Source of the DNA: a virus
DNA length: 64,000 bases
IMG/VR virus record: IMGVR_UViG_3300045988_172778
Location: 32,001 to 96,000 of that record
Direction: 5' to 3' (one strand)
Positions 14,376 through 44,428 of the stretch are shown one piece after another. Below the pieces are notes generated by a model that was not told the origin of the DNA, ran no database searches, and was given only the letters and a program-made list of their open reading frames with translations. Both the position numbers and the translations under genes were made by a program. Each line of letters opens with the position of its first letter. Position 1 is the stretch's first letter.

Positions 14376-14485
14376 CAATTTACAAAAAATTATGGCTTTA
14401 AAAATGTGGTTAATCCGCTGCATTTTTTTATTGCTTGATTTTAATATATATAAATTTATATAAATTAAAAAAGGAGAAAATTAAT

Positions 14486-15322
14486 ATGGCTAATTATATT
14501 CTTGGCGATGTTATGAAAGCCGAAGCCTTTGTCCGTGGCGAAGACGGCAAACTTCAGCATTATTTCAGCGCGAATACAATGACTGATAGCACGCTTAATA
14601 TATCTGTTACCGCCGAAGAAATTCGTGGTGGTTGGGGAAACCAGCTGCTTGGTAAAATATTCCATGACACTAACTTCGGTGTAAATCTTACTGAGGCTAT
14701 GTGGTCGCTTGATTATCTTGCTGCTCAAATTGGCGAAGAAGTTAAGAAGGGCGCTGGTAAAGATCTTAAATCCGTTGCTGGAACAGTAGCGGCCGAAGGC
14801 GCTCTTACGGTTACTATTCCCGAAGGAGATACTATAGCTCCCATGTTCGACAAGGCGGCTGGTTTCTGTGCGGCAGCTGATAATACTCTTGTAGTTTGGG
14901 TTAAGGACTGTAACGATGAAATGTTCACTTATACTGCTACGAAGGATGGAGATGGAAATACTTATACGTTCCAACTTGTTGGCGATGCTAAACCCAAGGT
15001 TGGCGCGGTTTGTGTTACTTACCCCACTGAAGTGACTGATTGCGAACAACTTATAGTTTCCGCTGCTTACGCTCCTAAGGAATTTAGCTTATTCCTTTAT
15101 GGCAAACTCTTTGCTGGTAATGGCTGCCAAAAATCCAAAGGTAAATATGCTGGCAAAATAACCATCGAAATTTCGAGATTCCAACTTGATGGTACGGTTG
15201 ATCTTACGATGAACCCGAGTTCCGCTGCTTCCGTTTCGCTTAACGGTCAGGCTCTTGCTTCTGGCTGCAGCTGCGATGGCGAACCTCAATATGCTACCAT
15301 TACAACTATCATAAATAAATAA
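14486..15322 (+). CDS. major tail (tube) protein candidate
   Basis: ATG at 14486 behind AAAGGAG (the track start at 14435 is spurious). 278 aa with strong codon bias. The motif T.TDSTLNISVTAEEIRGGWGNQLL recalls siphovirus major tail proteins. A strong terminator lies downstream. Confidence 0.5.
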   Translation: MANYILGDVMKAEAFVRGEDGKLQHYFSANTMTDSTLNISVTAEEIRGGWGNQLLGKIFHDTNFGVNLTEAMWSLDYLAAQIGEEVKKGAGKDLKSVAGTVAAEGALTVTIPEGDTIAPMFDKAAGFCAAADNTLVVWVKDCNDEMFTYTATKDGDGNTYTFQLVGDAKPKVGAVCVTYPTEVTDCEQLIVSAAYAPKEFSLFLYGKLFAGNGCQKSKGKYAGKITIEISRFQLDGTVDLTMNPSSAASVSLNGQALASGCSCDGEPQYATITTIINK

Positions 15323-15678: not shown

Positions 15679-16290
15679 ATGTTATATTTAGATTATGCTA
15701 AACAAATTGATTCGGGGTACATTTTAAATCTTTTTGCAGATTCATTTGAAGACATAAAAGAAGTATCCAATGGTAAAAGTTTTGTAACGAAGAATGGCAC
15801 TAATTACGGAGTACCACAAGCGGGAAGTACGGTTACAATAACCACTCCTAATGCACCCAAGACTACTTATGTTATAGATGCAGAAGGAACGTGGGTAGTC
15901 GCTGAGAATATCTCTTATTCTGCGGTTGTAGCAAACCCCACAGACGAAGCGACGGAAAAGCTGGAGAAACTTAAGGTAAATGACACAACTTACGGCGTGG
16001 GGTCAAAGTTATACAGAAAAACGGTTATTGTTACAAAAGATGAAAATAAATGTTATTTTACAACATTTGAGAGCAATAGCAATAAAATAGTCGGGCGTTA
16101 CAGACTTTTTGGTATCGGCAGTTGCTTAATTGATGGAGTTTGGTATCCATGTAACAATATCAGAATGACGGAAGAAGTAAATTCTGAAACAGATTTCAAC
16201 GCTCAAATAGGTTACGTTAAATCTGAGGTTAACGTTTTTGTAGCTAAATTCGAAAACGCAACAGCAACAATAACCGTGGAAGAGGTGTAA
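15679..16290 (+). CDS. fibre-like protein, paralog of the 16332 N-terminus
   Basis: 203 aa. Its first ~75 aa ([16 protein letters not shown]...KNGTNYGVP) align with ORF 16332, but it uses AT-richer codons. Confidence 0.5.
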   Translation: MLYLDYAKQIDSGYILNLFADSFEDIKEVSNGKSFVTKNGTNYGVPQAGSTVTITTPNAPKTTYVIDAEGTWVVAENISYSAVVANPTDEATEKLEKLKVNDTTYGVGSKLYRKTVIVTKDENKCYFTTFESNSNKIVGRYRLFGIGSCLIDGVWYPCNNIRMTEEVNSETDFNAQIGYVKSEVNVFVAKFENATATITVEEV

Positions 16291-16331: not shown

Positions 16332-17447
16332 ATGTTATATTTAGACTATGCAAAACCTGTTGATGGCGGTTATATACTTAATTTCTTCGCCGATAAAGTT
16401 GAGGATATGGAATCCATAACTGGCGGCAAAGAATTTATCACAAAGAACGGCACGAATTACGGCGTTCCCCTTAAAGGTTCGACGGTCGTAATAACCGCTC
16501 CTGACAAAGAGAAGAAGACGTTCGTTCTCGATGAAAATGGGGAATGGAACGAGGGCGGATTAGACCCGAACCAATTTTACACGAAGGAAGCTGCTGACGA
16601 AAAATTCATGGAAAAGGCAGGCGGCTCGATAACTGGCGACCTTACCGTTGGTGGTAATCTTGTTGTAAACGGAAAGACGACCACGGTTGAATCCGAGAAC
16701 CTCGCCGTTAAAGATAAACTTATCGAGGTTGCGGCTGGAAACGCGGCGAAGCTTGCGGCACCCGCTGGTCTCGTTGTCCCGAAATATGACGGGACGAATT
16801 CTGGTGCGCTCGTATTTGACGGCGACGGAATTGCTTATGTCGGTGACGTTGTTTTGAACGCGAAAGGCGATATAGACGTTTCGCAGAGTGACCTTGCGGC
16901 GTTGGCGGTAAAGAAAGATATACCCACTGATTATCTTGTCGGTGGCGAGCAGACAGCCACTTCTGAAGACGATGGCGGAGCTAACGTATTCACGTTCACG
17001 AAAGCTGACGGAAAGACCGCAACATTTACAGTGAAGAACGGATCAAGGGGCGCAGTTGGTCCCGCAGGCCCCGCTGGCGCAAAGGGCGAAACTGGTGAAG
17101 CAGGAGCCCAAGGCGCGGTTGGCCCGACTGGTCCCAAGGGAGACAAAGGAGACGTAGGTCCGACTGGCCCGCAGGGTCCGAAAGGCGATGCGGGTGCGGC
17201 TGGTGCAGCGGGTGCGGCTGGTCCGAAAGGTGACGCAGGTCCGCAGGGACCTATTGGTCCGACAGGCCCGAAAGGAGATCAGGGTGAGACTGGTCCCGCA
17301 GGTGCAGCTGGCGCGAAAGGCGCAACGGGTGCGCACGTTACAGCTATAACGCTTACGAAGGATTCGACGGGCGCGATAACTAGCGGCACGGCTTCTTTGA
17401 GCGATGGCACGAGCGTTCCCATAACGGTAACGGTTGCAGAAGCGTAA
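16332..17447 (+). CDS. collagen-like fibre protein (type 1)
   Basis: 371 aa with an uninterrupted GXY tract of ~97 aa (nt ~17041-17333). The N-terminus is paralogous to ORF 15679. Confidence 0.7.
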
Positions 17448-17913: not shown

Positions 17914-18996
17914 ATGGCGCAAAAATATAAAAGTAAATGGACGGGTCCACAAGTCGACGAGGCAGTCGGGAACGTCTCAAAAAAAATAGACAAAGACAGT
18001 TTGACTGGCAGTAACGGGATAACTATTAACAAAACCGTTTCGACGATAGAAATAAGCGGAGTTGAATTGGTAAAAAAGACGACAGAAGCTAACAGGGTAT
18101 ATGGAACCGATTCAACTGGCGGGCAGGCTTTAAAGCCGTTTGCCAACACCCCAACCCCTTCTGCCTTGGCGGCGTATAACGACGTTTCTAACTTAAAAAC
18201 GTCTGTGCCCGTCGAAGATTTGGATTGTACGAACAAGAAATATGTAGATGATGCAATAGCAGGAGTGGCAGAAAGTGTAACAGTCGACGGAACCTCGCTT
18301 GTCAAAGATACCGACGGGAAAATCCAGCTCAATCAGGAGTACATCGACTATCTCGACAACCAGCTCTATCAGCCGCCCGCTATTTCGGTTTTCACCATGC
18401 TTGATGCGGCTGGTGCTGCGCTTCCCACGAGTAACGAGTTGGGCACGACTTTAAGCGCGGCGGCGTTTAATCACCAAGAAACGAACATCAAGAACATCCA
18501 GGGTGATAACGTCGAGTTGCACATTAACAATGCGGCGGCTGCGACAATTTCAGCCGCGAAGAAAGACGTTGCAACAAAGGTGACTCTCACAACGGCGCAG
18601 AGCATAACAAACAGTACCAAATTCACACTCAAAGGCACGAACACGAAGGGCGCGGCTTTCAGCAGAGATTACCAAGTCAACTTTTACAGATACGCATACA
18701 CGGCGACGACAGACGCGACAACCGCTCCGACAAGCGGCGCAACGCAACAAGCGGCAGTCAGCACTTTCGCGTCGAACGGAAGTACGTTCAACTACACCAA
18801 GGGCGGGTATATATACTTCTATACCGACAACACAGGCAAGAAGGTTCAGACGAACGTTTTAGGTCAGTGGGCGGATGTTGATACGACAGACATGGGCAAA
18901 GTTACGCTCACGCAAAGTAACGGCTCAACACACGAATATACGTGTTACAGAATCGGACCCTTCATCGAGACGGGTTCCGCTAAATATAGAGTCTAA
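17914..18996 (+). CDS. tail fibre protein (MAQKYKSKWTGPQVD family, copy 1)
   Basis: 360 aa. The N-terminus and the NKKYVDDAIAGVAESV junction are shared with ORF 25729. The C-terminal domain is unique. Confidence 0.6.
   Translation: MAQKYKSKWTGPQVDEAVGNVSKKIDKDSLTGSNGITINKTVSTIEISGVELVKKTTEANRVYGTDSTGGQALKPFANTPTPSALAAYNDVSNLKTSVPVEDLDCTNKKYVDDAIAGVAESVTVDGTSLVKDTDGKIQLNQEYIDYLDNQLYQPPAISVFTMLDAAGAALPTSNELGTTLSAAAFNHQETNIKNIQGDNVELHINNAAAATISAAKKDVATKVTLTTAQSITNSTKFTLKGTNTKGAAFSRDYQVNFYRYAYTATTDATTAPTSGATQQAAVSTFASNGSTFNYTKGGYIYFYTDNTGKKVQTNVLGQWADVDTTDMGKVTLTQSNGSTHEYTCYRIGPFIETGSAKYRV
18238..18280 (+). repeat. 43-bp exact direct repeat, copy 1 (partner 26407-26449)
   Basis: aaatatgtagatgatgcaatagcaggagtggcagaaagtgtaa is identical in both fibre genes. 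It extends to 49 bp with one mismatch. Confidence 0.9.
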
Positions 18997-22887: not shown

Positions 22888-22909
22888 GCAATACAATAAG
22901 AAGTAAAAT

Positions 22910-22954
22910 GGCAGACTTTAAGATGTTAGCGGCTTGTTAAAGTCTGCCTATTTA
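22910..22954 (+). terminator. terminator hairpin
   Basis: Arms ggcagactttaa / ttaaagtctgcc followed by tattt. Confidence 0.6.
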
Positions 22955-22973
22955 CAAATATGGAGGGATTTAG

Positions 22974-23867
<894 letters not shown>

Positions 23868-23908
23868 ATAATCTTATTAAAAAAATCAATCAAGGAGGGA
23901 TTTGCCAT

Positions 23909-24919
23909 ATGGCAAGAACAACGGTATATAACGAAGATTTGTCAAAGGAGTGGCAGATCACAAACCCGAAAAATCAGAAATTACTCAAAGAATTTATTCG
24001 TTATTGCGTGGCGAACGATAAAAGCCCGCAAACTTGTAACCAATATGAGTCGCAACTCAAAATCTTCTTTTGTTGGAATTACAGGGAAAATGACGATAAG
24101 TTTTTTGTTGACATAAAGAAGCGCGAGCTTGTGAACTTTTTCGGTTGGGGGCGGAGTATCGGTTGGAGCTCGTGCAGGCTTGCTTCTCTTCGCGCGGCGT
24201 TAAGTTCGTTCAGCAATTACATAGAACGAATACTTGATGAGGATTATCCGACATTCAGAAACCTTGTGAAGGTTCTCGAACCGATTCACCTCGAAGCGGT
24301 TCGAGAAAAGACGATAATCGAGAAAGATGATATAATGGCAGGGATTGAGCGGTTAGTTGCGCTTGGAGAATACCAATACGCGTGTTTCCTCTCGCTCCTC
24401 TTTTCGTCTGGAATGAGAAAAGCGGAAGCCGCGCAGATGAAGGTCTCGTATTTCACGACCGATAAGGTAGTCGTGTTTAGGGGACTCGCTTATATGACTC
24501 CGAAAATCAGGACGAAAGGGCACGGGGCACGTGGCAAGCAGGTGCCGAGATACGTGTTCAAAGAAACGTTTGACAAATACTTTGAGCTATGGCTTAAAGA
24601 GCGCGAAAAGCTCGGGATCGAGATAGACGATTTATTCGTTGTAAAAGGTGCCGACGGGAGATACCGACCCGCAAAAGGGCAGAATTTTTCACATTGGGCA
24701 GTGAAAATCGGGGAGTTAATAGGCGTAAATTCACTATATTGTCACAGTTTGAGACACGCGTTTACGACGTATTTGAAACGGCAGAACTTCCCGACCGACG
24801 TCGTTCAGAAAATCCAATCGTGGGGAAGCGCAGATATGGTGGCGAGATATGATGACAGAAGCGATAGCGAAGAGTTGGATAGCTTTTTTGAAAAAATGAC
24901 CGAAAAGGAGAGAGAATAA
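23909..24919 (+). CDS. tyrosine site-specific recombinase (XerC/D- or Cre-size, no arm-binding domain)
   Basis: 336 aa. N-terminal SAM-like core-binding region, then SGMRKAEA (Arg), KIRTKGHGARGK (Lys), HSLRHAF (HxxR), and W..ARY (Trp/Tyr nucleophile). RBS AAGGAGGG. Confidence 0.8.
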   Translation: MARTTVYNEDLSKEWQITNPKNQKLLKEFIRYCVANDKSPQTCNQYESQLKIFFCWNYRENDDKFFVDIKKRELVNFFGWGRSIGWSSCRLASLRAALSSFSNYIERILDEDYPTFRNLVKVLEPIHLEAVREKTIIEKDDIMAGIERLVALGEYQYACFLSLLFSSGMRKAEAAQMKVSYFTTDKVVVFRGLAYMTPKIRTKGHGARGKQVPRYVFKETFDKYFELWLKEREKLGIEIDDLFVVKGADGRYRPAKGQNFSHWAVKIGELIGVNSLYCHSLRHAFTTYLKRQNFPTDVVQKIQSWGSADMVARYDDRSDSEELDSFFEKMTEKERE

Positions 24920-24921
24920 GC

Positions 24922-25719
24922 ATGGTAGAAAATGGAACGAGAGCGGACATCGCCCGTAAAAGATTTGAAGACACAAATCAATTAACAGCAAAACACATGA
25001 TATATGTCGGGACTGGCGACACAGAAGAGGTTACCCTCGGAAAGGATAAAAGTTATATTTACAAAACGGAGGGGAAGAATATTATAAGCGCGATTAATGA
25101 CGCGACTAAGGATGAAGCGGGTATCATAGATAAGGCACACAGCGCAGAAACAGCAGATCAGGCAACTAATGCAGAGACCGCGAAAAAAATCGTATCAGAA
25201 GACGATAGTAGCATCACTATAATAAAAGGGAAAAGTAATAACAATCAAAGTAGGATTGTCCCTCCTGGAGGCGTTGAGGTGGATTTAGGTGCTTCTGGGT
25301 ATGAGTTTGCTAAGGTTTATGCGAACATTTTTACAGGGACGGCAAATGCAGCGATAGACACTAATTTTTCGAGAGAAACTTTTAAAAGTAGTGTAGTTTC
25401 AAATACATCTTTTGGACTTTCTGAGGCGGGATTTTATTATATTTATTTTGTAATAAATTCTCAAAGGATAAATCTTGGTTTGATATATTGGGATGGGGAA
25501 AATGATAGTTACAGCCCAATAATGGCGAGTTATAGAGATAATGGTGGTTCTTTTGAGATATTATGCGATGAATATTTTGCGCGCATCTACCCCTTCGAGC
25601 TCGGAGGAAAAATCGAAGGAAAAATTGCGATATATAAAAAAAGTTCGCTTAGGAGTAAGCCAGATGCTTGGGCGTCTGCATCATCAGGGGTTACAATATA
25701 TTACAAAAAAATCAGATGA
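24922..25719 (+). CDS. fibre-like protein
   Basis: 265 aa. Its start lies 2 nt after the recombinase stop. AHSAETADQATNAETAKKI is a fibre-type alanine-rich stalk motif. Confidence 0.5.
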   Translation: MVENGTRADIARKRFEDTNQLTAKHMIYVGTGDTEEVTLGKDKSYIYKTEGKNIISAINDATKDEAGIIDKAHSAETADQATNAETAKKIVSEDDSSITIIKGKSNNNQSRIVPPGGVEVDLGASGYEFAKVYANIFTGTANAAIDTNFSRETFKSSVVSNTSFGLSEAGFYYIYFVINSQRINLGLIYWDGENDSYSPIMASYRDNGGSFEILCDEYFARIYPFELGGKIEGKIAIYKKSSLRSKPDAWASASSGVTIYYKKIR

Positions 25720-25728
25720 GGTGGCGGC

Positions 25729-26736
25729 ATGGCACAAAAATATAAAAGCAAATGGACAGGGCCACAGGTCGATTCAGCGGTTGATCAAATTACCGATAAG
25801 ATAGACAGAGGCGAGATCGGGGTTGCAGGCGGGATCGCTTCTCTCGGAAGTGATGGAAAGGTTCCGAGTTGGCAATTACCAACAGCAAAGAGTGTTACGG
25901 CTGATAATTTTATAGGTAAAGATGGAATTACAATCGACAAAGCAGCTGATTCTGAAAAGATAGAGATAAGCGGTAGTGGATTGGTAAAGAGAGGAACCAA
26001 CGTTAATGTTACAAATTATGGTCACGTATATGGATATAATGGAAATGGAACAAAAGTCATAGATAAAGAATTTATAGTTAACCAAGATGCTGAAACGCAA
26101 TCAATTGCTCTTAGAACTAACAAGGGTGAATTAATTGCTAATACTACAGATACAGCAGGGGACCTTACCCTCACCAACAAGAAATATGTAGATGATAACT
26201 TTGTAGCTAAGGATACAACTCCCGCAAGAGTAATATATGCACACTCTCCTGATGGTACTCCTTTAATGTTACATCCTCAAGTTAGTGATACTTTAAGTGA
26301 ATGGTGGCTTCCAGTTTATAGACCAAGTGTATCAGGCGATACTGTAACAGGTAATGCAGTGCTTTTAACCGCCGTACCAACAAGAGATTATCAATGTGCA
26401 AACAAAAAATATGTAGATGATGCAATAGCAGGAGTGGCAGAAAGTGTAAGCCGTTATAAACATCACGTGAAATTTACATTTGTTTCTAACACTTATAACG
26501 GAAGTTTTTTCACCGATATTTATTCAAATCAGAATACAGTGATAGATTCTCTTGCAAGTTTGAAGACTTATTTAGGGGATGAATTTACGAAGGATTTGTA
26601 TGGGTATTTAGAATATAGCAACGCTTATCGTTTAGGCAATTTAATAACCGACACAACAGTATTTTACATACAAAACGGTGTTGGGACTCAATCAATCTCT
26701 AACTTTACTATTTCTGATACAGTAACGACAATCTAA
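25729..26736 (+). CDS. tail fibre protein (MAQKYKSKWTGPQVD family, copy 2)
   Basis: 335 aa and AT-rich. It is a paralog of ORF 17914 and carries two NKKYVDD motifs, the second inside the 43-bp exact repeat. Confidence 0.6.
   Translation: MAQKYKSKWTGPQVDSAVDQITDKIDRGEIGVAGGIASLGSDGKVPSWQLPTAKSVTADNFIGKDGITIDKAADSEKIEISGSGLVKRGTNVNVTNYGHVYGYNGNGTKVIDKEFIVNQDAETQSIALRTNKGELIANTTDTAGDLTLTNKKYVDDNFVAKDTTPARVIYAHSPDGTPLMLHPQVSDTLSEWWLPVYRPSVSGDTVTGNAVLLTAVPTRDYQCANKKYVDDAIAGVAESVSRYKHHVKFTFVSNTYNGSFFTDIYSNQNTVIDSLASLKTYLGDEFTKDLYGYLEYSNAYRLGNLITDTTVFYIQNGVGTQSISNFTISDTVTTI
26407..26449 (+). repeat. 43-bp exact direct repeat, copy 2 (partner 18238-18280)
   Basis: Identical string. The flanks diverge immediately on the 3' side. 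Confidence 0.9.
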
Positions 26737-26751
26737 AGATAAGGAGGATAT

Positions 26752-27669
26752 ATGAATACGGAATATTATTTATCTAGATTCAGCGGGGAAATGATAGACG
26801 GGAAAGTGGATAAAATGCCGAAATCAAATCCTCGATCAGATAGTTTAATTGTAATTAACAAGGATGGGCGAAGCGGCGGGTATTTAGCATTATCCGACAT
26901 CGATCCGTGGAAATTTGTAGACTCGGCATTATCGGCGACATCAGATAATACCGTTGAAAATAGCGCGATTACGAAGGCGCTTTCTGAAAAAATCCAATAC
27001 CCAAAAGTTGATGGAGTAAACGGTTGGTGTTTATTCAGAGACAAAAATGGTATTGCGTGGAAAGAGATGGTGCCTGGCGATTTTAAACAAGGAGACAGCG
27101 CTTACGACATATGGTTGCGTGCTCCCCATCAAGGCACGAAAATAGACTTCCTTAACAGCTTAATAGGCATAGCTGGCGAGAGGGGCGCTATAGGCGGCAA
27201 AGGCGCGACAGGCGCACAGGGCGCAAAAGGCGAGACAGGTGCACAAGGCAGTAAAGGCGCGACAGGCGCACAGGGCGCAAAAGGCGCGACGGGCGCGACG
27301 GGTGATCGAGGAAGTCAGGGCGCCTCGGGTCGGCAAGGCGAAACGGGCGATACAGGTGCAGAAGGCCCGAAAGGCCCAACAGGTGATAGCCCAAAGGGTA
27401 ATACGGGTGCAGAAGGACCAAAGGGTAATACGGGTGCAGAAGGACCAAAGGGTTCCAGGGGAGATCAAGGGCCAATGGGTCCACAGGGGGCACAAGGAAA
27501 CCCAGGAGCTTGGGGTTGGGAATCAGGTTGCGGCGGAAGTTCTCCAAGTAAAGGTTCTGATTTCCTATATGAGCCGATAGAGAGTGCCGTTATGTTTCAG
27601 ATGCTAAATGATAGTGGGGAGACAGAGGGGGTAAAAATAACTATGAGTATTACAGGGAATACGATTTAA
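26752..27669 (+). CDS. collagen-like fibre protein (type 2, copy B)
   Basis: 305 aa. Same N-domain plan as ORF 22974 ([22 protein letters not shown]). GXY tract at nt ~27166-27515 with a GDSPKG interruption. Confidence 0.7.
27391..27453 (+). repeat. 27-bp tandem repeat (2.3 copies) in the collagen tract
   Basis: ccaaagggtaatacgggtgcagaagga is repeated and encodes PKGNTGAEG. Confidence 0.9.
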
Positions 27670-27680
27670 AAGGTGAAATT

Positions 27681-29228
<1,548 letters not shown>

Positions 29229-29254
29229 AATATTTACAATAATGGAGGTACAAT

Positions 29255-29582
29255 ATGATTTCAGTAAAAACATTTTACGCTTATGGTAAAGAAAAGCCAA
29301 TTACAGGCGAGAGTTCTGTTATTTTTAACAATTCTGCGGAGACCCTCACTATGCAAGTTGACGAACTAGCGGGTAGTGTTGAGTTATATGGTACCGCAGA
29401 TTTTGATTCAGATGTTTTTTTACAAACTCACGGGCAATAGCTCGTCTTTTGAGTTAGTAAACAAAATCACAACCGACGGGATTTATCACTTCTCAATCGA
29501 AGGCATTGCGAAAATCAAATTTGAGGTCGAAAACACCAATAAAGATTTGATTGTATTTTGCCGAATGACAAAGGGGGTATAA
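29255..29582 (+). CDS. small beta-rich protein split by a frameshift at a T7 run
   Basis: ORFs 29255-29440 and 29376-29582 overlap. The sense continues across the T7 at 29415-29421 (..ADFDSDVF / YKLTGNSSSFELV..). Removing one T fuses them into ~108 aa. Confidence 0.55.
29415..29421 (+). other. T7 homopolymer at the frame break
   Basis: gatgttttttt ac; the frame changes from 2 to 0 (+1) here. Confidence 0.8.
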
Positions 29583-29586
29583 TCTT

Positions 29587-31832
29587 ATGACGGATAAATT
29601 AGCGAGAGATTTAGCATTAAGTGCTTTAGACAAAGTGAATAAAACCGTCGAAGGTGTTCCGAAGGATTATGTCGATGAGCATTTGTTGAAGAAGGTAGAT
29701 AAAATAGAAAGTTCGTCCGCAAACCCGCGCTTATACGGAGTTAGCGAGGCGGGGTCTCAAACTAGTTATTTCGCCACCCAAACCGCCAACGCGTACACAA
29801 TTCCGATGAGAGACGCGAGCGGCAGATTTCAAGTTGAAAGCGGGTTGGCTCCGAAACAAGCCGTGAATAAAGAGCAGCTTGACGCTGCGTTAGATACGGT
29901 CGCGAAGCTGGCGGAGCCTAACACTTTTACGGAACAAAACACATTTACATCGGAAGTGAAGTTTTACGGAACCGTTGAGCACACGTCCAACGTAAATATA
30001 ACGAACGGTTTTCTGAAAATATTAAACGGTAAAGACAAAGATTATGTCACGACGTATAATGTTGATAATATTAAGGTCGAGGAAAATGGAAGCGAATACA
30101 CACTGGTATTTCCGAATCAATCTGGCACATTAGCGCTAACCGATGATATTACGGCGAAGATAAATGAAAAAATCGGGTTTAAGTATTCGCAATTGAAAAA
30201 TAATGATGTTTTAATAACGGTGCGATTCAAAAAGACGATACGTGGGAAACCAACGACACGGACGCCTCGTTAAGTATTCGGCATTCTGACGCGATTAATC
30301 AATCGGAAATAGCAGTATCGAAAGCATTTGCAGAGATAGGTGTTCAAGAAGTAACAGGGCAATCTAGTGCCACATCTCAACTTACTTTAACAACGGATAA
30401 CGTTAGTTTAACAAGTACGCGCGGAGCGGATACTTATACGACCGTCATTATAAACCCCGATGGGGCGACAATCAACGGTGAGAAGATAGCGACCGAGAAA
30501 ACGGTTAACGCGAAAGTAGCACGTATCCCTGAAGGTGTCGAATTAACCGACCCCGAAAGCGCGACACAGGGGAATTTGACGGCGGAGCAGCTCGCAAAAC
30601 TTCAGTTCAACAAAGCGAATTATATCCTTTTCGCAGGGAAGAAATATGACTTGCGGAATGAGCGTTCGCAACAAGATTCGTTGTCTTACGTTTACAATGA
30701 TTACTTGAACAGTCGTTGTATTCAAGACGTTATAACGATCACGGTTTCGACTCGTTCGTGGGTGCGTAATTCGTGCACGTTGGTGACAAACAAAGATTAC
30801 GGCGATGGTACCGCTGGCGCGGTGTCGATAAAGAAAGACTTTTCTGGCGGGTTACAATTGGCGACGACAGATGGAGATTTAAGCATATATGGTGCGGTCG
30901 ATGCGGATATAACTGGCAGGAATTCCAAACGCCCGATTACGCCTATAAACCTCAACAAAGCGGTTTTAGCGGCGTTGACCGATGCGAAAAAGGTTGAACC
31001 AACCGAGCAACAAAAAACCGATTTTAAGGCAGCATGGGGAATTATCGACGCTGTAAATATTCTCGACGCGGAAATGTCCGATGATAGCACTAATGCAGTT
31101 CAGAACAAGGTTATTAAAGCAGAATTAGATAATCGTGTTAGGTGCTCAACAAACGTCCAAAGCGGGCAAGTAAAGGTCTACTGCGCGACACAGAATAACC
31201 CAAACGATGTTTGTTTGGTTTCGAGTTCTGGAGTACAAAACTCGATTGCTCGATATACGTCGACGGGGCAGCTCGCTGTCGGGAGAGAGCCGAGCGGCGA
31301 TATGGAAATCGCTAACAAAAAATTTGTGGAAGGAATTGTTCCGAAATATGGGGCGGAACTTCCAAACCCAACCAACGACGCATACAAAATCGGGTGCTCG
31401 TTTTTAAACACGACAACTGGCGGCTTATATGTTTTGGTTGCTTCTGGAAGCGCGAGTAATCGTTCTTGGCAGTTACAAACCACGATTGAAAAGCCGAAAT
31501 GGAGAAACACGCTACCACACATAAATGACACGCAGGAAATCGACGCGACAAAGGTCTTATTTACGAAAGTCACGATTACGACGATCGATAGTACAAACTT
31601 TCCTGGAATGAACGGAAAATCTGTAACAATTCAAGGATTGAGTTTTTATGGGTTTGCGGCTGGCACGATTGTGTGTGATGAGATAACGGGCGGTATACAG
31701 TATAGCCCGTGTTTTATTGGCTCAATAACTTCGAGCAGGGCGTCTGGAGTTTTAATAAAAGGCTCTAACGCGGTCGCGGTTATAAGTGTTGATAATCCCG
31801 AAGTTTCTTTTGCTTACGAGTATTTGTGGTGA
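29587..31832 (+). CDS. long tail fibre protein interrupted by a -1 frame break at an A5 run
   Basis: ORF 29587-30273 ends in junk (..RFKKTIRGKPTTRTPR*). The frame of ORF 30576 is actually open from 30207 and reads ..KDDTWETNDTDASLSIRHSDAINQ.. . Joining at ttc aaa aa(a) gac gives ..TVRFKKDDTWET.. . Fibre motifs are present (NTFTEQNTFTS, STNAVQNKVI, ANKKFVEG). Confidence 0.6.
30229..30233 (+). other. A5 run (c aaa aag) at the frame break
   Basis: The frame 1 to frame 0 (-1) transition is required within 30207-30273, and this is the only slippery-looking element there. Confidence 0.6.
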
Positions 31833-31887
31833 GATAAAACCCTCGTTTTATTCAATGGAGAAAATTTAGGATATTTTTTAGGTAAAA

Positions 31888-31935
31888 TTAGAGACCTCGC
31901 TACGCGCGAGGTCTCTAATTTACTATATTTTTTTA
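31888..31935 (+). terminator. terminator hairpin after the fibre block
   Basis: Arms attagagacctcgc / gcgaggtctctaat, followed by a T-rich tail (tatattttttt). Confidence 0.6.
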
Positions 31936-31971: not shown

Positions 31972-32460
31972 ATGGATATAAAACAGACGCTTATGCAGGC
32001 GTTGAAAAAAGATATAAAAATAGACTTAGAGCGGAAATTAGAGAAAGTGCGAATTCCGTGCATGAATTATCTAAAGGAAAACGCTCTAAGAATTTTTAAA
32101 GAGAAAATAACAGAGGTTTATAAAATAAACTCTGATAGAATACAAGTAATAGATTTACCCCTATTTTTAAAAACTGTAACAATACAAGACAAAGATAAGT
32201 GGAGTTTTGATATTTTTATTGACGAAGATTTGTTAAATTTTAAAACTAAAAGTGGTGAACAGATTTATCAATACTCTAATGACGGGATGTTTTATACTAA
32301 CAACGAAGAAGTTCATAATTTAGATGAATATTGGCATTCACCTATAAACGGGAAGAGTGAAAATAATTGGTATAAAATTGAAATTTGGAAAGAACTTAAT
32401 ACTTTTTTAAAAAATGATTTTACACAATATGTAAAAGACAGATTAATGGAGGTAAAATAA
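31972..32460 (+). CDS. hypothetical protein immediately upstream of the tape measure (chaperone position)
   Basis: 162 aa, AT-rich, RBS AAGGAGG. Its stop abuts the tape-measure ATG. Assigned by position only. Confidence 0.35.
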   Translation: MDIKQTLMQALKKDIKIDLERKLEKVRIPCMNYLKENALRIFKEKITEVYKINSDRIQVIDLPLFLKTVTIQDKDKWSFDIFIDEDLLNFKTKSGEQIYQYSNDGMFYTNNEEVHNLDEYWHSPINGKSENNWYKIEIWKELNTFLKNDFTQYVKDRLMEVK

Positions 32461-35400
32461 ATGAAAAAAACTGACAAAATCGGTGTTGAAATATATTTGA
32501 AACAATATGAAGATATGTTTAAACAGTATCAAGAACTTTTAAACAAAGAAATGGGCAATCATAAAGATATGCTAACTTCGATTATGAGAGAGCAACTTGA
32601 TGATCTCAAAGATACTTATAAACTTCCAATGGACAAAATCCGAGAAATAGAAGATCGTATTTTGGCGCCGAAATTAAAAGAACAGGCTGAGAAAGCAGCA
32701 CAACAAGCTAAAAAAGACGCTGAGGATTATTTGAAGAAGAACCAGGAGACTATCAATAAGGCATTAGGTGTTAATAAAGATAGTATGAAAACACTCTTAG
32801 AGACAAATAATTTAGTAGTCGAAAGTAGTAAAAAAGCTCTCGAGGACGCAAAAAAAGCGAAAGAAGCCATAGAGAAACAAGATAAAAAAATGAAGATGGA
32901 TAGAGTTAGGGGTGAAAGAACTCTTAAGGCTCAAAAGGCAAGAGCGGAAAAAGAGAGCCGAATGAGAGAGGAACAGGCTAAATCGATGTATTTTGAAGCC
33001 GCACCATCTTCTGATTATGAAGTGATAAACGTGCCTGGATGGGGGCATGATTATAAACATAAAAAAGCTAAAACTGCAAAAATGAGGAGTGGGAAAGAAG
33101 TAGATTTAGGTAACGTAAGGCAATTATCCGTTACCAAATTAGCATCTCTTATAACTCATAATTTTGAAGATTTTGAAGCTTTGGCAAAAGAAAATGCAAA
33201 GAAAATTGCTGATTTTGAATCCAAACATGGTAAAACCCCATTAGACAAAGATAAAGCTAAGGAACTTTCCGATCTTAAAACTTTACAACGTGAATATGAA
33301 GATGCTAATCTAAATTTAACAAATGCCCAAAAAAGAGGAACTGCATTTCATAAAGTGGTCGAGCTTGTAGAAAAAAGTGAAATTTCTTTGGATGAATTAA
33401 CAGAAGATAGATTAGAAGAACTTGGAAAGCAATATGACGAAATCGGGGAAGGGCTTAAACTTCAACAAAGAACCAAAAATGGCAAATTAAGGTCTGTTAA
33501 ACAAAACAAACAAATTTTAGATCTCGTAAAAAAATATGACGAATTTAAAAAACAAGCTGGGTTAAAGGGGCAAACAACTACAGAAACTCCGCTTGGGATG
33601 CTTGTAGATCTTGGTGACGAGGTTGTAGAAGTAGTAGGAACGTTTGATAGTATTTTCAACGAAATGTCGACCCTTGTGGACTTTAAAACTAGTAGCAGAG
33701 TCGATGTAAAAAAAATAGGAATACAGCTAAACTTACTCAAAAAAATGGCGCTCCTTAATCCCAAGTTTATGAAAGCCAAAGGGATAAAGGGTAGCCTCGA
33801 CGCGTTGAAAGTTTTCCATTTGCCATTTAGAGGCGGAAAGGGTGGTGTTTATGACGTTGGCACCGCCGATGATGCAATGATGTGGCAGTGGATAAAATCC
33901 GCTTTCGATATTTTAGCTGGAGAAACGACGGAAAAGCCTGACGTGCCTGTCTTAATGCGTGGTAAATTAACTCTTGGCGAATGGCAGAATAAAAAAAAAG
34001 GTACAAGTGGTAGGCAGTGGTTGCTCAATAATATTTCTTTAAACGATTTAGCCAAACAATATGAAAGAGGCACTATGTCTTACGAGGAAATTATGGATAA
34101 CATAAATTCCTTAAACGAAGAAGACCGTCGGCATTTCATAAATTTGATTTGGAGCACCAAAGAATACGAAGAAAAAAAGAAAACTCAACGAGTATTTAAA
34201 GTCGTAGATGGGAAACGCGTTCCACTGTTAGATGAAAAGGGGAATGCACAATACGATGCGTCTGGCAAGCCATTATATGAGATGCAAGATATTGTGTCTT
34301 CGGTCCCCCCGAGAGAAACTGGAAAATTATACAGACAGGGCGCATTGTGGGACAAATTAAGAGGCGATTTGAATTCTTTTCAAAAAGATATTGAAGGAAT
34401 AGTTGATGATGAATACGCAAATATATCTAATAGAATGACAAAAATTCAAAATCAAATCTCGAAAATCAAAATTTCTTATATAGAAGCAAAAGAATTTGTA
34501 ACCGATGCAAACGGGAATTTAATAGAAACCACAAAAACTATGCCTGCGAATGAAAAAGAAAAGGCGAAAGAAAATAGACGGAATGAGCTAATAATACAAA
34601 GAGAGGCGTTGCGCGAACAGTTGGCTAACCAAGCCACATCTGCTTTTTCTGAACAGGTTTTTAAAACAGATCAAGGATATGGGAGTGCTCAAACCATTGG
34701 TGGCGGGTATTTATCTGAGTGGGCAAAAGCTTATCGTATTCATTCTGAGAGCGGAGATGGATTGGCGGATCAAATCGCTAACCGTTTTGTCAGTTACATT
34801 TTAAACGCTGGATTGTCTAATTTTCAACTTGATGAATTGAAGGGTGGTTTAGTTGGTATAGCGGCAAAAGATGAAGCTAATCAAGCATTTGTGGACGCTA
34901 TTCAAGATAGACTGTTGGGAAAACATTCCGTAATTGCCCCTGATTTAGAGAGAGCCCAAGAACTCGAAAGTCAAATAATAGCACTTAATAAAGAAAGGGC
35001 TTCTTTAGATAAAGATGTTTTAAATCCAAGAATAGAAGAAATCGACAAACTTGTACAACAACTAATTGCGGAACAGGATCGAGTCAAATATGCTCAAGAA
35101 GTTGGTGGGATTTTTACCGATGAATCTATCGGCATAAATGAAATGACGGAGGATTATGCTTCAGAAAAAGGCAAAAAATCCGCTCGGATGCGAGGCGAAG
35201 CCGCAACTAATAGAGCTGCTCGAATGATAAGTCGGTTAAGAGCGTTTTCAGAATATGATTTGTCCGATAAAAGTTTTGACGACGTTATGGGATTTATCAA
35301 AGGTTTGTCTGGAATAAGGAATGAATTTAAAGGATTTTTAAACGCATTGGGTTCAGATGAAAATTCCGAAATAGACGAATATGGTGTGCCTGAATATATA

Positions 35401-37568
35401 GAAAAGAGCGAAAATATTTTGGACGCATGGACCACATTTGTCCGTAATTTAAAAAATAAAGTTCGCGGGTTAGAAAATTTAGACGAAAATCAGATAGAAG
35501 AGGCGGTTCGAGGATTAGACATTTCAACTGGCGTTCAAGAAGACATTGGAGGGCTTGCTAAAAAAACGGGGCATAAATTATCTTGGTTATATCAACTTAA
35601 AGATATTTACGACGAGTTTTTATCGCCAGAGATGGAAGAGGTTAACAAAAGTCTTTCTGAAAAAGCTAAATTTACTTCGGTTGAACAATATGCAAAGTCT
35701 CGACTTACACAAGCTCAATATGAACAATATGCTTCTTCAATTGATTTTAGAAAATCCATATCGGAAGGAAAAGATTTCAGTACCGTAATAAGCCAATTTT
35801 TGGATACGCCTGAATTTCAACTAAAAAGTAATTTGGCGACTGCGTTACAAAAAGCTTTAGCAAAAATAATGGAGGCGAATCCTCAACTTTTAGATGATAC
35901 CATTTATAATATTTTTATGACACAAACTGATTTAGGCGAAGGAAATAAAATGAAATGGTGGCATGGAATTGGGGCATCTGAAAGGTTAAGAAGGGGCGAT
36001 ATTGTTAGAAATTGGGCCTACAATCCCAACGAAATCCTAACGACGAAACCCGAAATGATCGTTGAAGTAGAAGAGAGAGCAGAAGAAAAATTACGCGATG
36101 AAAGTTCGATCAGAGACGCGGTAGAAAGCGCAAGAATCAGGGCGGAACAATCAGCTAGAGAATATAACCAAAAAGCATTTGACATTAAAAAACAAATTAC
36201 GGCTCAAACTGGATTTGATATTGAAGATTATGATAAAAAATATGGATTTGATAAATATGAAAATGCTTATAAAAAATTGTATGCTTTAGCAATAAAGGTC
36301 GGGCGTGGAGAAACTGATTACAAAGATTTTATGAGAGGAGAGCTGGGGGAAACTCATCTCTCTGGTGAAACTTTACAGAAATATGAAGAGCTTCGCAAAG
36401 GATTGGAGATCGCACAACTTCAAATGGGGATGCCCGATGATATGTCCGAAGAAGCGAAAGAGTTGTTTGCTAAAAGGCAACATCTTTTCGAAGAATATTA
36501 TATTCCGTCTCTTAGAGACAAAAGTTATGTCTCTATTTTAAGGAAAAGATATGGGGTTAAAGGCGACGAATCCGATGTTTTAGCTCAGCAAGCAGCGGTT
36601 GTAAACCAGATAAAATCTCTTCCCGATCAAGCACTTTTAAACACCACCTCTGAAATAAACGATGCAAAAAACGTAGACGTCGACGCGAATTCTATTACAG
36701 TGGGTGAACCCGAAAAAGTTGAAAATAATACCGAGACGACTGAAATAAAGGCTGACACCGTGGTGATAAATGAAGCAGAAAGCTCAGCGGATGCCGAAAA
36801 ACCCACCAAACGTCGTGGGCGTCCTCGTAAAAAGAAGGCCGAAGACGTTGAAGTGGCTTCTGAATCATCTGATAAAATGGAAGTTTCATCTGACGGTGGT
36901 ACTGGAGGCGGAGATGGAGGAGGTAAAACCCCACCGAAGTCTAGCGGAAGAAAAGGCAAGAGCGATGAAGAAAAGGCACAAGCGGATACTGAAAAACGGC
37001 AGAAACAAGATATAAGGGAATACCAACTGTATATTAACAGAGTTATAAGCCTTGAATCTCAGATTGATAAACTTCAAAGGCAAGCAGCGTTAAGCGGCGG
37101 AAAGCATAAGGATGCTATTTATGGAACAATTGACGCGCTTAATGAAGAGCTTGGGGATCTTAATCGTAATAACGACGCGCTCAAACAAAGAGTTGCGACC
37201 GAACAAGCAGCAACAAAAGAATCGATTGACGCAACAGCGGCCCTTAAGAAGCAATCAAACGCGCAAAAGAATCTTGTAAGCGTAAAAGGCGCAACTTCAA
37301 TCTGGGATATGATGGCGAACGACATTCGTCGTGCAACCATGCGTGTCGCAGACTTCGGAATTGCTGCGAAGGTTTTGAACAAGATCCCGCAGGATATACA
37401 GAAGGTAATTCAGTATACGAAAGAGTTGGACGCGGCGATGACGAATATTCGTGTCGTTACGGGTGCTTCGGCGGAAGAGGCTCAAACGCTCGCACAAGGA
37501 TATACACAACTTGCAAAAGAATTGGGGATAACCACTGTCGAAGTTGCTAATTCGGCAAACGAGTGGGT
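32461..37568 (+). CDS. tape measure protein, exon 1 (includes a PD-(D/E)XK-like domain and an AT-hook)
   Basis: Long coiled-coil-rich ORF. It ends ..AMTNIRVVTGASAEEAQTLAQGYTQLAKELGITTVEVANSANEWV, the start of the conserved tape-measure core. The frame then runs into a stop after 10 unrelated codons. Confidence 0.7.
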
Positions 37569-38742
37569 TAACAAATGTCTGGCTCACTATAAACTCCTTT
37601 AATTGCTGGAACCCCCTTAGAGCCATATAACTACAACATAACGATGAAATAGGCGTAAGTGTGATAGTTAAAAATATATGGATTGGGAAATCAGCAGCCA
37701 AACCTCGAACAGAGGAAGGTTCAACGAATATGTTCCACGAGTGTGGATAATGGGGAGCTCTACATAGAGAAATCTATGCGAAAGATATATTCTGAACTTC
37801 TGAGGAAACTCAGAGAAAATTCTATAAAAGGAGGTGAAATATTTGTGATAATAGAAAGTGAAGTTAAAATGGTTATAAATCAATATAATTTTGATTATTA
37901 TAAAAATCTTGGTTACGATATTCAAAAATGTGGACAACGAATTTTTGTAAAAGTTTCTGATTTACCAAAAACATCTGGGACAAAAATCCATACGATATGT
38001 GAATATTGTGGAGAAATAGTAGAAAAATCATACCGAAGGTATATAGAATCTATCGAATGTGGGAAAAACTGTTGTTCAAAATGTTTGAAATACAAAATTC
38101 CTGAAAATGTTTTAGAAAAATACGGATGTCGTTCTACTTTAAGAATTCCAGAAATTCATGAATCGGTAACTAAAAATAATCTTAAGAAGTACGGTTGTGA
38201 AAACCCTCTTGAATCAGCAGAAATTAGGGCTAAAGGTGTTCAGACTATGCAGAGTCGTTATGGTTGTAGTTATACCCTTCAAAGTGATGAATTACGTGAA
38301 AAGTGTAATCGGACATTATATGAAAATGGGAACGATATAACTGCGACAAGCAGACAACAAAGATATTTGTGTGATTTATACAAAGGAGAATTGAATTATC
38401 CTATTTGGATTTATCACATAGACATTTTGTTGTCGGACAACATATGTTGCGAATATGATGGAAGCGGTCACGATCTTAGTGTTAAATTAGGTAATGAAAC
38501 AAGAGAAAACTTTATTAGAAAAGAAAATAAAAGAATAACCTTTTTAACAAACCACAATTATAAGTTATTTAAAATACTTTCTAACACAGATATTTTGCCT
38601 AGTGATGAGATACTTTTAAACATAAAGAAACGGGCTTTTGAAATATTAAAAGTCCGAAATTATATGTATTATGAGTACAATTTAGACACAAATATAGAAT
38701 CTTTTAAATGATAAACTAAATTTAAAAGTAACACAATTACAG
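37569..38742 (+). mobile_element. group-I-like intron 1 with homing endonuclease ORF
   Basis: Exon GUGGGU (37563-37568) can pair with GCUCAC (37582-37587), giving a terminal U-G at the junction. GAAA-capped hairpins lie at 37763-37778 and 37800-37813. The 3' end reads aaaagtaacacaattacaG. Both the 5' and 3' ends resemble intron 2. Confidence 0.6.
37845..38711 (+). CDS. intron-encoded homing endonuclease (zinc ribbon + KYG..P repeats + EYDGSGHD nuclease core)
   Basis: GTG at 37845 (or ATG at 37869) behind AAAGGAGG. Motifs: CEYCG..CCSKC; repeats KYGCRSTL/KYGCENPL/RYGCSYTL; HIDILLSDNICCEYDGSGHD (Vsr/DUF559/EDxHD-like). It is AT-rich. Confidence 0.6.
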   Translation: MIIESEVKMVINQYNFDYYKNLGYDIQKCGQRIFVKVSDLPKTSGTKIHTICEYCGEIVEKSYRRYIESIECGKNCCSKCLKYKIPENVLEKYGCRSTLRIPEIHESVTKNNLKKYGCENPLESAEIRAKGVQTMQSRYGCSYTLQSDELREKCNRTLYENGNDITATSRQQRYLCDLYKGELNYPIWIYHIDILLSDNICCEYDGSGHDLSVKLGNETRENFIRKENKRITFLTNHNYKLFKILSNTDILPSDEILLNIKKRAFEILKVRNYMYYEYNLDTNIESFK

Positions 38743-41700: not shown

Positions 41701-42049
41701 AAACAAAGGGCTAAAAGAATATGCTGCTGAAATTGACAAAGGTGGGTATACCACCTTATCTCAAATTAGAGATGCGGTTAAAGAATTTGACGAGACAGAC
41801 CCGAGACGTAAAACGTTTTTGGAATATCTTGAAACGATAAATTATACTTACTCCAAAGACTTGACAGCTTTAGAGAAACCGTCCGAGTATATTAAATCTC
41901 AACTCGAAGAGCAAATAAACAATCTTCAAGAGCAAAAAGATGCTTTATCTCAAATTAATGACGAGAGAGAAAAAGAACTTAATCTAATTAAAGCGAAACA
42001 AGCGCTCGAAAACGCTCGGAAAGAAAAGAGAAGGGTTTATAGACAGGGT
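38743..42049 (+). CDS. tape measure protein, exon 2 (conserved core)
   Basis: Reads (V)QGYAGEEANQLIVASSKLAKLGMISTTEATKDLTSAIKGFKLSTEDAMSVVDKLTKIDQVAAISAGNLAEGLARVSTTAQQAGLSLDETAAMVTTITEVTQ, the classic TP901-type tape-measure core. It ends ..EKRRVYRQG. Confidence 0.7.
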
Positions 42050-43288: not shown

Positions 43289-44266
43289 ATTGGCTTCGTT
43301 ATGGAAAGCAACGAGGAAGCAATTGCCGAAGCGCAAAAAAATCTCGAGAACTTAAATACTCAAAAACGCCAAGAAAATCTTCAAACGCAAATTGACGCGC
43401 TTCAGATGCAGAAAGACATTATCGAAGCTCTTCCAAATCAGGCTCAACTCGAACAAACCAAAAAGATTTGGGAATTGTGGGCAGCGGATAAGGGAACGAA
43501 AGGAAGTCTTGCTTCTGTAACCGAAGGCGTAACGATGTTGGCGGATGCTTATACAAATGCCACAAATCGGATGAATATGCGTGCTAAAACAGAAGGGGTT
43601 CTAAATACACCTGATGAAAAGAGCAGTATGCAGACATCTGATAAAAATACTAACCCCGTTATCACCCTTAGTGAAACTCAAATAGAATATACTAAAGCCT
43701 TAGTTTCTAACGTGGATGATATTAGAAATATCTTATTAGGGAAACATACTAAAAACTTCCAAAATATGTTGGATTTCGTGAACAAAAACAACATGCTTCA
43801 AGGCGATTATGCACGGTGGGGAGAAATGTTCAGAGCTGCTGGTATATTAAACGAATGGAATTCTTTGTCTGATAAAGAGAAAGAAGCTATTAGAAGCCAA
43901 GCAAATACGAGAGCGGGTGGAGACATTTCCTTCCAAGGCGGTAAAGCTCTTATCAACGAGCTCGGAACCGAAGCGGTCATCACGCCAGGCGGCACGCTTA
44001 CCGCCCTTCCTTCGAAGACGGGTATCGTCCCTGCGGACATAACCCGAAACGTTTGGGCGCTCGGAGAAGTCGCTCCGACGTTGGTCGCACAGCTCGGCTC
44101 GCTTACGCAGAAGACGCTCTCTGGCAACGCTGTAAACACAACTTACGAAGAAGGTCAATACTTCGACAACTTTACGATGAACGTTTACCCCGCAAAGGGC
44201 GACGATTTCAACAAGATACTCGAACAGGCGCGCGCACAAATGCGACTTACGCGTCATAACAACTAA
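43289..44266 (+). CDS. tape measure protein, exon 3
   Basis: IGFVMESNEEAIAEAQKNLE... ; the C-terminal GGKALINELGTEAVITPGGTLTALPSKTGIVPADIT is typical of tape-measure C-termini. Confidence 0.65.
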   Translation: MGFVMESNEEAIAEAQKNLENLNTQKRQENLQTQIDALQMQKDIIEALPNQAQLEQTKKIWELWAADKGTKGSLASVTEGVTMLADAYTNATNRMNMRAKTEGVLNTPDEKSSMQTSDKNTNPVITLSETQIEYTKALVSNVDDIRNILLGKHTKNFQNMLDFVNKNNMLQGDYARWGEMFRAAGILNEWNSLSDKEKEAIRSQANTRAGGDISFQGGKALINELGTEAVITPGGTLTALPSKTGIVPADITRNVWALGEVAPTLVAQLGSLTQKTLSGNAVNTTYEEGQYFDNFTMNVYPAKGDDFNKILEQARAQMRLTRHNN

Positions 44267-44428
44267 AATGCGGCTCGATAAAAGAAGCATTTTATTATAC
44301 AAAAAAACGGTTCATTTCGGTTTTATCGCGTTTCCGTAAAAAACGCGTTACCATTAGTTTGGGTGTGGCGGTTGAGAAGACCTCCCGCCCGCCATAACTC
44401 AATAAAAAAATAAAGAGGAGGAAAAATT

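Follow-up and report, generated by a model that had tools for sequence, protein, structure and literature searches.

Tyrosine recombinases embedded in late operons recur among phages, in SPbeta, the Tsamsa-like Tyroviruses, the Sextaecviruses, Ldl1- and 949-like phages and Wbeta-like phages, and no function has been demonstrated for them in the literature that we searched. Such genes are routinely labelled "integrase" and read as evidence of a temperate lifestyle, for example in phage-therapy screening. One of them, gp50, lies in the structural module of Tyroviruses, a placement termed "especially curious", and is likely co-transcribed with the structural genes, "contrary to a role in phage lysogeny" (PMC9703825). 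The same study noted a gp50-like placement for Psychrobacillus phage Perkons and for lactococcal 949 phages, called the function unknown, proposed an 11+6+11 inverted repeat directly past the gp50 stop codon as attP, and described two other recombinases of Tyroviruses beside replication and plasmid genes (PMC9703825). Sextaecviruses possess a homologue but otherwise lack a lysogeny module, and no lysogens were obtained with them on 44 strains (PMC10117716). In SPbeta the gene is yomM, within the order yomU (tube)...yomR/Q/P...yomM...yomK-J-yomI (tape measure); a literature search for yomM returned no relevant paper. Here we analyze a gene of this kind, located at positions 23909–24919 of a 64,000-nucleotide stretch of viral DNA (IMG/VR record IMGVR_UViG_3300045988_172778, positions 32,001 to 96,000), referred to below as the window.

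The placement of this gene is an already published and still unexplained curiosity (PMC9703825), encountered here in a new and larger metagenomic clade; the window alone reveals no new mechanism. What the present analysis adds is the conservation of the recombinase in a large clade of gut phages of about 60–160 kb, a strong constraint on its active site and its position as a constant element amid hypervariable fibre genes. The breadth of the clade, the constraint and the fixed position together make a stronger case for a role in the lytic cycle. The activity that we favor, with a probability of about 40–45%, is that of a Xer/Cre-like recombinase, expressed late and working on the replicating DNA of the phage itself, and not that of a lysogeny integrase or a fibre switch.

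Recombinase gene and its described relatives

The gene and its catalytic elements, in window coordinates, are as follows.

23909–24919, + strand: Xer-like tyrosine recombinase of 336 residues; open reading frame (ORF) from ATG, PF00589 match, YomM/gp50 ortholog by sequence and position
23892–23898, + strand: Shine-Dalgarno sequence AAGGAGG, 10 nucleotides 5' of the recombinase ATG, read directly from the sequence
24416–24418, + strand: codon of the catalytic Arg-I (R170), invariant in alignments A1 and A3 and present in 84 of 84 unique relatives
24515–24517, + strand: codon of the catalytic Lys (K203, in the beta-hairpin motif TKGxG), invariant in A3; Lys in 81 of 84 relatives
24743–24754, + strand: H279-x-x-R282 (His-II and Arg-II), present in 84 of 84 relatives
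24821–24850, + strand: W305 (the His/Trp-III position) to the nucleophile Y314; Trp in 78 and Tyr in 83 of 84 relatives

The recombinase matches the Pfam family Phage_integrase (PF00589) over residues 152–319 with 59.7 bits (E=4e-16), the curated cut-off of the family being 27.1 bits. A SAM-like N-terminal domain (Pfam SAM_4) gave a weak match under its cut-off (E=0.009), and PHROG 1, "integrase", matched with E=2.5e-24. At E<=1e-10 the homologues number 344 proteins, which places the family assignment far beyond chance. In the family alignment of 33 sequences (A3) the residues R170, K203, H279, R282, W305 and Y314 are all invariant, and 78 of the 84 unique relatives retain the full RKHRWY signature; homologues from Bacillus, Staphylococcus and Enterococcus phages have His in place of Trp at position III. 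The homologue lineages reach about 40% identity, or about 25% when those of cultured phages are counted. The retention of all six catalytic residues across lineages down to 40% identity indicates purifying selection for activity. The gene is thus real by these measures, and the enzyme is apparently active.

The AlphaFold2 model of the recombinase, built on the family alignment, has a predicted local distance difference test score of 90.2. It comprises a four-helix N-terminal domain (residues 20–108), a linker and a catalytic domain (residues 139–335). Foldseek returned XerA (5hxy), XerH (5jjv) and Cre as the top matches of the model, and the family sequence profile matched best to XerA 4a8e (E=5e-12), then to XerA 5hxy, XerH 5jjv and XerD. 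An arm-binding domain was looked for in the Pfam matches and in the model, and none was found. The initial annotation of this gene had described a complete R..K..HxxR..W..Y set in a Cre/XerD-sized protein of 336 residues devoid of an arm-binding domain; the PF00589 match and the 33-sequence alignment bear out the first statement, the model and Pfam the second. The gene very probably encodes a two-domain Xer/Cre-type tyrosine recombinase of the YomM/gp50 kind.

Among 50,697 phage records, 136 match the recombinase at E<=1e-5. They comprise the Tsamsa/Thrax Tyroviruses, SPbeta-like phages (among them SPbetaL3 and BUCT082), Staphylococcus Sextaecviruses, Enterococcus Andrewesvirinae, Lactobacillus Ldl1-like phages, Wbeta-like Bacillus phages, large Clostridioides/Clostridium phages and Thermus P23-45-like phages. 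SPbeta YomM (SPBc2, NP_046588) aligned by BLASTP with 30% identity (E=6e-22), while tblastn against the recombinases of Tsamsa, Thrax and Skywalker gave E-values from 2e-20 to 4e-17, those of Tsamsa and Thrax being about 29% identical over 93% of the protein.

YomM, of 333 residues and annotated "site-specific integrase", resembles the window recombinase in size and in its slot after the tube and fibre-like genes and before the tape measure, with neighbors in the YonD, YonB, YomX, YomW and YomU families. It differs in its active site, where Lys replaces Arg-II (HxxK) and His replaces Trp at position III. Furthermore, yomM is followed by a non-coding stretch of about 0.4 kb and the opposite yomL, whereas the window recombinase is followed after 2 nucleotides by co-oriented fibre genes; SPbeta has a Bacillus host, whereas the window phage has one in the gut. 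Tyrovirus gp50 shares both sequence and a structural-module site between tube/neck genes and tape measure, the order in Thrax2 being major tail protein, neck protein, recombinase and tape measure. Unlike the window gene, which has no adjoining intergenic DNA, gp50 has a 3' intergenic region of 88 nucleotides that holds the proposed 11+6+11 repeat; gp50 has no surrounding fibre cluster, and it coexists with the two extra tyrosine recombinases. The homologues of the Sextaecviruses (6ec, SEP9, BE02, SA2), Andrewesvirinae, Ldl1 and BtCS33 (ORF15) are likewise co-oriented with late genes, and are found past a fibre gene (SA2), past the lysin (vB_EfaS_140, Ldl1) or at the junction of minor structural protein and lysis genes (BtCS33). 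They are only 23–27% identical to the window recombinase, carry His at position III and occupy the end of the late operon rather than the slot between tube and tape measure.

XerA, XerH and Cre are the closest solved structures by profile and fold, with the same two domains and catalytic residues, at 13–18% identity; inverted-repeat scans of the window and of related loci identified no dif- or lox-like site for the window recombinase. Xer proteins are cellular chromosome-dimer resolvases and Cre has its own promoter beside loxP, both unlike the present case. The recombinases of the Rci shufflon and of Gin, Cin and Min also adjoin host-range genes, but their inverted repeats flank opposed cassettes, of which the window has none, and Gin and Cin are serine recombinases.

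The tube-to-tape measure region in the window and its relatives

Genes of the window were traced by exact protein matches to contigs from different samples, with lengths of 145,019, 145,035, 146,575 and 149,660 bp, which sets the genome at about 146 kb. Pfam families on these contigs include YonJ_N, YonD_N, YonB, YomX_C, YomW and YomU_Tube; with structural families named after SPbeta, the morphogenesis module is of the SPbeta type. By this gene content the window belongs to a large siphovirus of the gut with an SPbeta-type tail module. Our inspection covered about 82 kb of the genome; an exact 56-mer used to walk into the rest found no match in the viral collection. Tube (14435), recombinase (23909) and tape measure (from 32461) follow each other in the same orientation, and the features between them are listed below.

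14435–15322, + strand: tail tube gene (YomU_Tube family), which is conserved and anchors the variable region on the left, from PF27173 on the identical gene in locus L112 and synteny with relatives
22903–22955, + strand: stable hairpin 5' of the collagen-like gene, possibly a weak terminator; perfect 12-bp stem (GGCAGACTTTAA/TTAAAGTCTGCC) and 15-nucleotide loop
22974–23867, + strand: collagen-like fibre gene, a variable cassette (PF01391, E=1.5e-17)
24922–29228, + strand: four variable fibre-like genes 3' of the recombinase, at 24922 (265 residues), 25729 (335 residues), 26752 and 27681
29238–31832, + strand: fibre-like module of 2.6 kb with the small ORF 29255 and a frameshifted 748-residue gene, from blastn/blastp synteny
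31885–31921, + strand: intrinsic-terminator-like hairpin closing the fibre/recombinase array; perfect 16-bp stem, 5-nucleotide loop and T-run, the top match of the terminator scan
31972–47551, + strand: conserved right anchor, a 162-residue gene followed by the tape-measure gene in pieces, from PHROG tape-measure matches

All substantial ORFs of the window lie on the + strand, and the recombinase is embedded among late structural and fibre genes of the same orientation, 41 nucleotides from the collagen-like gene upstream and 2 nucleotides from gene 24922 downstream. Both the orientation and the two gaps agree with the initial annotation. The "terminator at 22910" of that annotation stands in part. 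A stable hairpin does form at 22903–22955 (−23.6 kcal/mol, z=−4.8), but it has a long loop and a poor T-tail and was not called in the terminator scan; it is confined to the window's own lineage, the homology to L013 stopping at 22895. The palindrome at 31885–31921 (−27.9 kcal/mol, z=−8.3; AGAGAC(C/T)TCGC-TACGC-GCGAGGTCTCT) is the only strong terminator-like site on the + strand within 15.5–33 kb, and neither the scan nor folding revealed any such site between 22955 and 31885. It is kept in L002–L005 and L013–L016, with a similar one in L007 (recombinase 52% identical), and lies in the first intergenic region past the recombinase in every close relative. The small gaps, the strong Shine-Dalgarno sequence and the lack of a terminator between 22955 and 31885 fit co-transcription of the recombinase with the fibre genes. 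The late co-expression that had been claimed is therefore compatible with the arrangement of the operon, and we infer co-transcription from this arrangement.

Relatives of the locus were collected from 178 viral-contig stretches, of which 80 loci were kept and labelled with L-numbers. The slot in which a recombinase lies between tube and tape measure is common to about 90 metagenomic loci (L002–L010, L013–L092). The recombinase of L013 is 97% identical to that of the window in amino-acid sequence, those of L002, L003 and L014–L017 are 83–85% identical, and that of L005 is 73% identical. In nucleotide sequence the homology to L013 amounts to 95.8% over 23881–24911 and ends at both gene ends; the flanking genes differ. 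At the position of the collagen-like gene L013 has another gene, of 261 residues, and in place of 24922–29228 it has a different gene set of 3.7 kb. The initial annotation had considered that the recombinase hitch-hiked with an imported fibre cassette. The reverse is seen: the recombinase is fixed and the adjoining genes are swapped, and the same tube-to-tape measure slot is shared by SPbeta, the Tyroviruses and the metagenomic loci with their different neighbors.

The window and L013 have the 2.6-kb module at 29238–31832 downstream of the recombinase, whereas L002, L003, L014, L015 and L017 have it upstream. This translocated module is bounded exactly by the ribosome-binding site and the stop codon, and no core is common to filled and empty sites. 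Such junctions indicate modular exchange at gene boundaries, not site-specific recombination, and they also speak against the suggestion of cassette exchange at direct repeats. The fibre paralogs diversify by ordinary gene-boundary exchange, and the conserved recombinase gene may do no more than supply homology for it. Across the wider clade the distance from tube to recombinase varies from 1.5 to 14 kb. By gene order and sequence, the recombinase is the stable element around which a hypervariable set of fibre genes is arranged.

The lineage of L008 (L008–L010, L032 and L033; 48–49% identity) departs from this layout. Its recombinase is followed by a gene of about 238 residues, a metallophosphoesterase gene and the NrdD/NrdG anaerobic ribonucleotide reductase genes, no ORF of tape-measure size occurs within 10 kb, and synteny of the tail module breaks just past the recombinase. 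Two contigs of this lineage measure about 155–159 kb. The difference between L008 and L009 past the recombinase proved to be a 155-nucleotide duplication within the next gene and was uninformative. A search for empty sites, anchored on the tube gene, found no closely related presence/absence pair; where the recombinase seemed to be absent, either it lay over 10 kb away from the tube or the lineage was a distant one.

In most lineages, at 50 loci, a conserved protein of about 222 residues is encoded directly 3' of the recombinase (for example L007 11023–11691 and L001 16066–16734). It belongs to no Pfam family and does not resemble SPbeta YomJ. In those phages it may assist the recombinase as a partner or accessory; as a conserved partner gene for the window recombinase it was rejected, being absent from the window and its close relatives. 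Locus L005 has, 5' of its recombinase, a gene of 418 residues (1585–2841) with an Mtd_N domain, as in the major tropism determinant of Bordetella phage BPP-1, which hints at a diversity-generating retroelement target in a related fibre region.

Candidate functions of the recombinase

The proposed activity on replicating phage DNA would proceed as follows. The recombinase would be made late, its gene being transcribed and translated along with the structural genes on either side. Based on the two-domain architecture and the catalytic residues that it shares with XerA, XerH and Cre, it would act as a homotetramer on a short site with inverted arms, presumably in trans and on one such specific site in the replicating DNA. 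As candidate outcomes, it could resolve multimers or recombination intermediates ahead of packaging, or re-circularize the genome; neither integration into a host chromosome nor rearrangement of fibre genes by the recombinase would be involved. SPbeta yomM, in the genetically tractable Bacillus subtilis, is the obvious test system.

Several observations weigh against this proposal. The scans found no target site, so that the activity was arrived at by exclusion, and the only conserved downstream palindrome, that at 31885–31921, looks like an ordinary intrinsic terminator. The site, or a lysogeny module, may lie in the part of the genome beyond the roughly 82 kb that was inspected. The need for a multimer resolvase is not obvious in phages that package from concatemers. 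More distant phages with a YomU-like tube do without the gene, and the recombinase is thus not indispensable to that module. Lastly, the Lys of YomM at the Arg-II position raises the prospect that catalysis may not always be required.

That the recombinase is instead the lysogeny integrase of the phage in an unusual place, with its attP elsewhere in the genome, is unlikely, and it is probably not an integrase of this kind. The proposal draws on the membership of the enzyme in the phage-integrase superfamily, on the temperate nature of SPbeta-type and Tsamsa-type phages, on the partial coverage of the genome and on the attP-like repeat proposed 3' of gp50 (PMC9703825). The architecture and setting of the gene point the other way. 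The enzyme lacks an arm-binding domain and lies inside the late structural array between fibre genes, and neither an attP nor an excisionase or repressor gene adjoins it; no lysogeny-type Pfam domains were present among the scanned ORFs of the window. An atypical placement for a lysogeny integrase and the lack of a local attP, excisionase and repressor had both been remarked upon from the sequence, and both remarks are upheld. Related phages rely on other enzymes or on none: SPbeta integrates via the serine recombinase SprA, BtCS33 has a separate integrase (ORF25), and the Sextaecviruses gave no lysogens. We also scanned GTDB with one genome per species. Within these 185,579 genomes no integrated copy was found by the short peptide patterns used, with the caveat that the host may be uncultured; all nine matches were on contigs of metagenome-assembled genomes, 2–173 kb in length, and none in isolate chromosomes. 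The taxa of these nine contigs (Bacteroidaceae, Lachnospiraceae, Treponema, Bacilli and others) are mutually inconsistent, as expected for mis-binned phage contigs.

An equally improbable role is that of a driver of fibre diversification, either as a hot-spot of exchange between co-infecting relatives, in the manner of Cre-lox in P1, or by cassette capture. The recombinase always lies within the hypervariable region, both adjoining genes differ even where the recombinase genes are 96% identical, the 2.6-kb module has changed sides, and the varying tube-to-recombinase distance and the nucleotide-metabolism cargo of the L008 lineage would also fit such a role. However, the junctions of the moved module carry no shared core or repeat, no recurring inverted repeats or attC-like hairpins are found between genes, and mosaicism is general in the tail-fibre regions of phages, whether a recombinase is present or not. 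The broader notion that the late recombinase turns the region into a dedicated point of exchange or capture for fibre and other cargo genes in SPbeta-type phages, whether as a Cre-lox-like hot-spot between co-infecting relatives or as a cassette platform with sites too short or degenerate to show up in the sequence, is quite unlikely; if true, it would explain one conserved gene in a hypervariable block with modules on either side.

Switching of fibres by inversion, of the Rci or Gin/Cin type, had been evoked by the initial annotation, with the qualification that inverted cassettes are absent. Repeat scans of 15–32.5 kb indeed revealed no inverted cassettes or notable inverted repeats. The exhaustive search for short inverted-repeat core sites across 15–32 kb that had been suggested, extended in whole-window and multi-locus scans, yielded no recurring site. 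A look-up of the exact recombinase sequence, made in search of isoforms, gave four contigs; all have the gene order of the window and differ solely in the length of collagen repeats and in a small ORF. With no inverted or recurring sites and a single gene order, the shufflon, invertase, integron-like and direct-repeat-deletion readings are all unsupported. An integron platform is further disfavored by gaps of 2–15 nucleotides, the lack of repeated attC-like hairpins and the co-orientation of the recombinase with the cassettes; IntI4 ranks 24th among the structural matches.

Individual candidate sites were considered and set aside. The palindrome within the recombinase gene at 24273–24307 (arms of 13–15 bp) arises from the codons of LEP...VRE, and its nucleotide sequence is not kept in L013 or L002. 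The hairpin at 22903–22955 was rejected as a repeated attC-like site, as it is single-copy and restricted to the window lineage. At the ends of the 2.6-kb module we found no site-specific signature shared by filled and empty sites. The palindrome at 31885–31921, considered as a lox- or dif-like site, was read as a terminator, having a GC-rich stem, a T-run and, in most relatives' copies, a G.T position (G.U in RNA). By analogy of position with the proposed Tyrovirus attP it is a weak candidate for a recombination site.

It is quite unlikely that the recombinase goes back, as remnant or driver, to an integrative element (a fibre-carrying moron) which entered the genome between the tube and tape-measure genes in the past and has since become fixed, having little or no function today. 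The tube gene of a typical siphovirus directly precedes the chaperone and tape-measure genes, and here a variable block and the recombinase intervene. The more distant phages with a YomU-like tube pass from tube to tape measure in about 4.3 kb, without recombinase or variable block, and in SPbeta, L007 and Thrax2 the recombinase sits at the right edge of the inserted block. Against such an origin stand the strict conservation of the six catalytic residues down to 40% identity and the failure to find a close presence/absence pair or flanking direct repeats. Least convincing is a non-catalytic DNA binder with an integrase fold, serving as a regulator or packaging accessory: integrase folds are reported to have been repurposed as repressors in SPbeta-type phages, as in MrpR/YopR of SPbeta (PMC10516654; bioRxiv 10.1101/2025.11.27.690993), and YomM has HxxK for HxxR, but 78 of 84 relatives keep every residue of the R-K-H-R-W-Y set, the nucleophilic Tyr among them, which would not be expected for mere binding and makes this very unlikely.

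Neighboring genes and variation in the window

Further genes of the window include the portal gene (396), collagen- and fibre-like genes (16–31 kb) and a primase gene (51589). Gene 24922–25719 has no Pfam match, and its counterpart in L002 bears YadA-head repeats. Gene 25729 is a paralog of 17914, and 26752 and 27681 are both collagen-like. Two pairs of fibre-like paralogs in direct orientation were noted, 17914–18996 with 25729–26736 and 15679–16290 with 16332–17447. Patches of 89% nucleotide identity occur between the paralogs amid divergent segments (17914–17957/25729–25772 and 18216–18280/26385–26449); such patches are usual in fibre genes of modular build and may serve as a substrate of homologous exchange.

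The region 29587–31832 is a single ORF of 748 residues in L013, L002, L003 and L014, and is split in the window into ORFs of 228 and 418 residues (29587–30273 and 30576–31832). The cause is a 1-nucleotide deletion in a T-run (GTTTTT to GTTTT) near 30210. It is not a read error of the window, because the independent metagenome contigs L112 and L113 have the same deletion. The frameshifted gene could be a pseudogene, a case of slippage-based phase variation or one of programmed frameshifting. The collagen-like gene 27681–29228 encodes 515 residues in the window and L113, and 509 in L112, whose recombinase is identical; the small ORF 29255–29440 encodes 61 residues in the window and L112, and 108 in L113.

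The tape-measure gene is in pieces (32461–37602, 38774–42067 and 43286–44266), with 44429–47551 following. L005 and L007 each have one giant tape-measure ORF with which these pieces are collinear. Between the pieces lie a DUF7487 gene (37683–38711) and an HNH endonuclease gene (42175–43146). When this region was searched with Rfam, introns of group I or group II were not detected even with the threshold at E<=1. Of the DUF7487 ORF, the first 48 residues recur with 94% conservation in relatives without its remainder. Another ORF resembling homing endonucleases, of 642 residues (7525–9453; PHROG 3339/559, faint helix-turn-helix matches, DUF7487 in the contig annotation), is placed between a YonB-like gene and the next structural gene. 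L109, whose portal protein is identical, has a DUF7487 gene of 373 residues at this position, a difference that indicates turnover of a mobile endonuclease. In the early region, a protein with a cREC_REC (cyclic-phosphate-processing receiver) domain (56950–57282) adjoins a Band_7/lipoprotein-like gene (57387–58502), and the pair may serve in host interaction or anti-defence.

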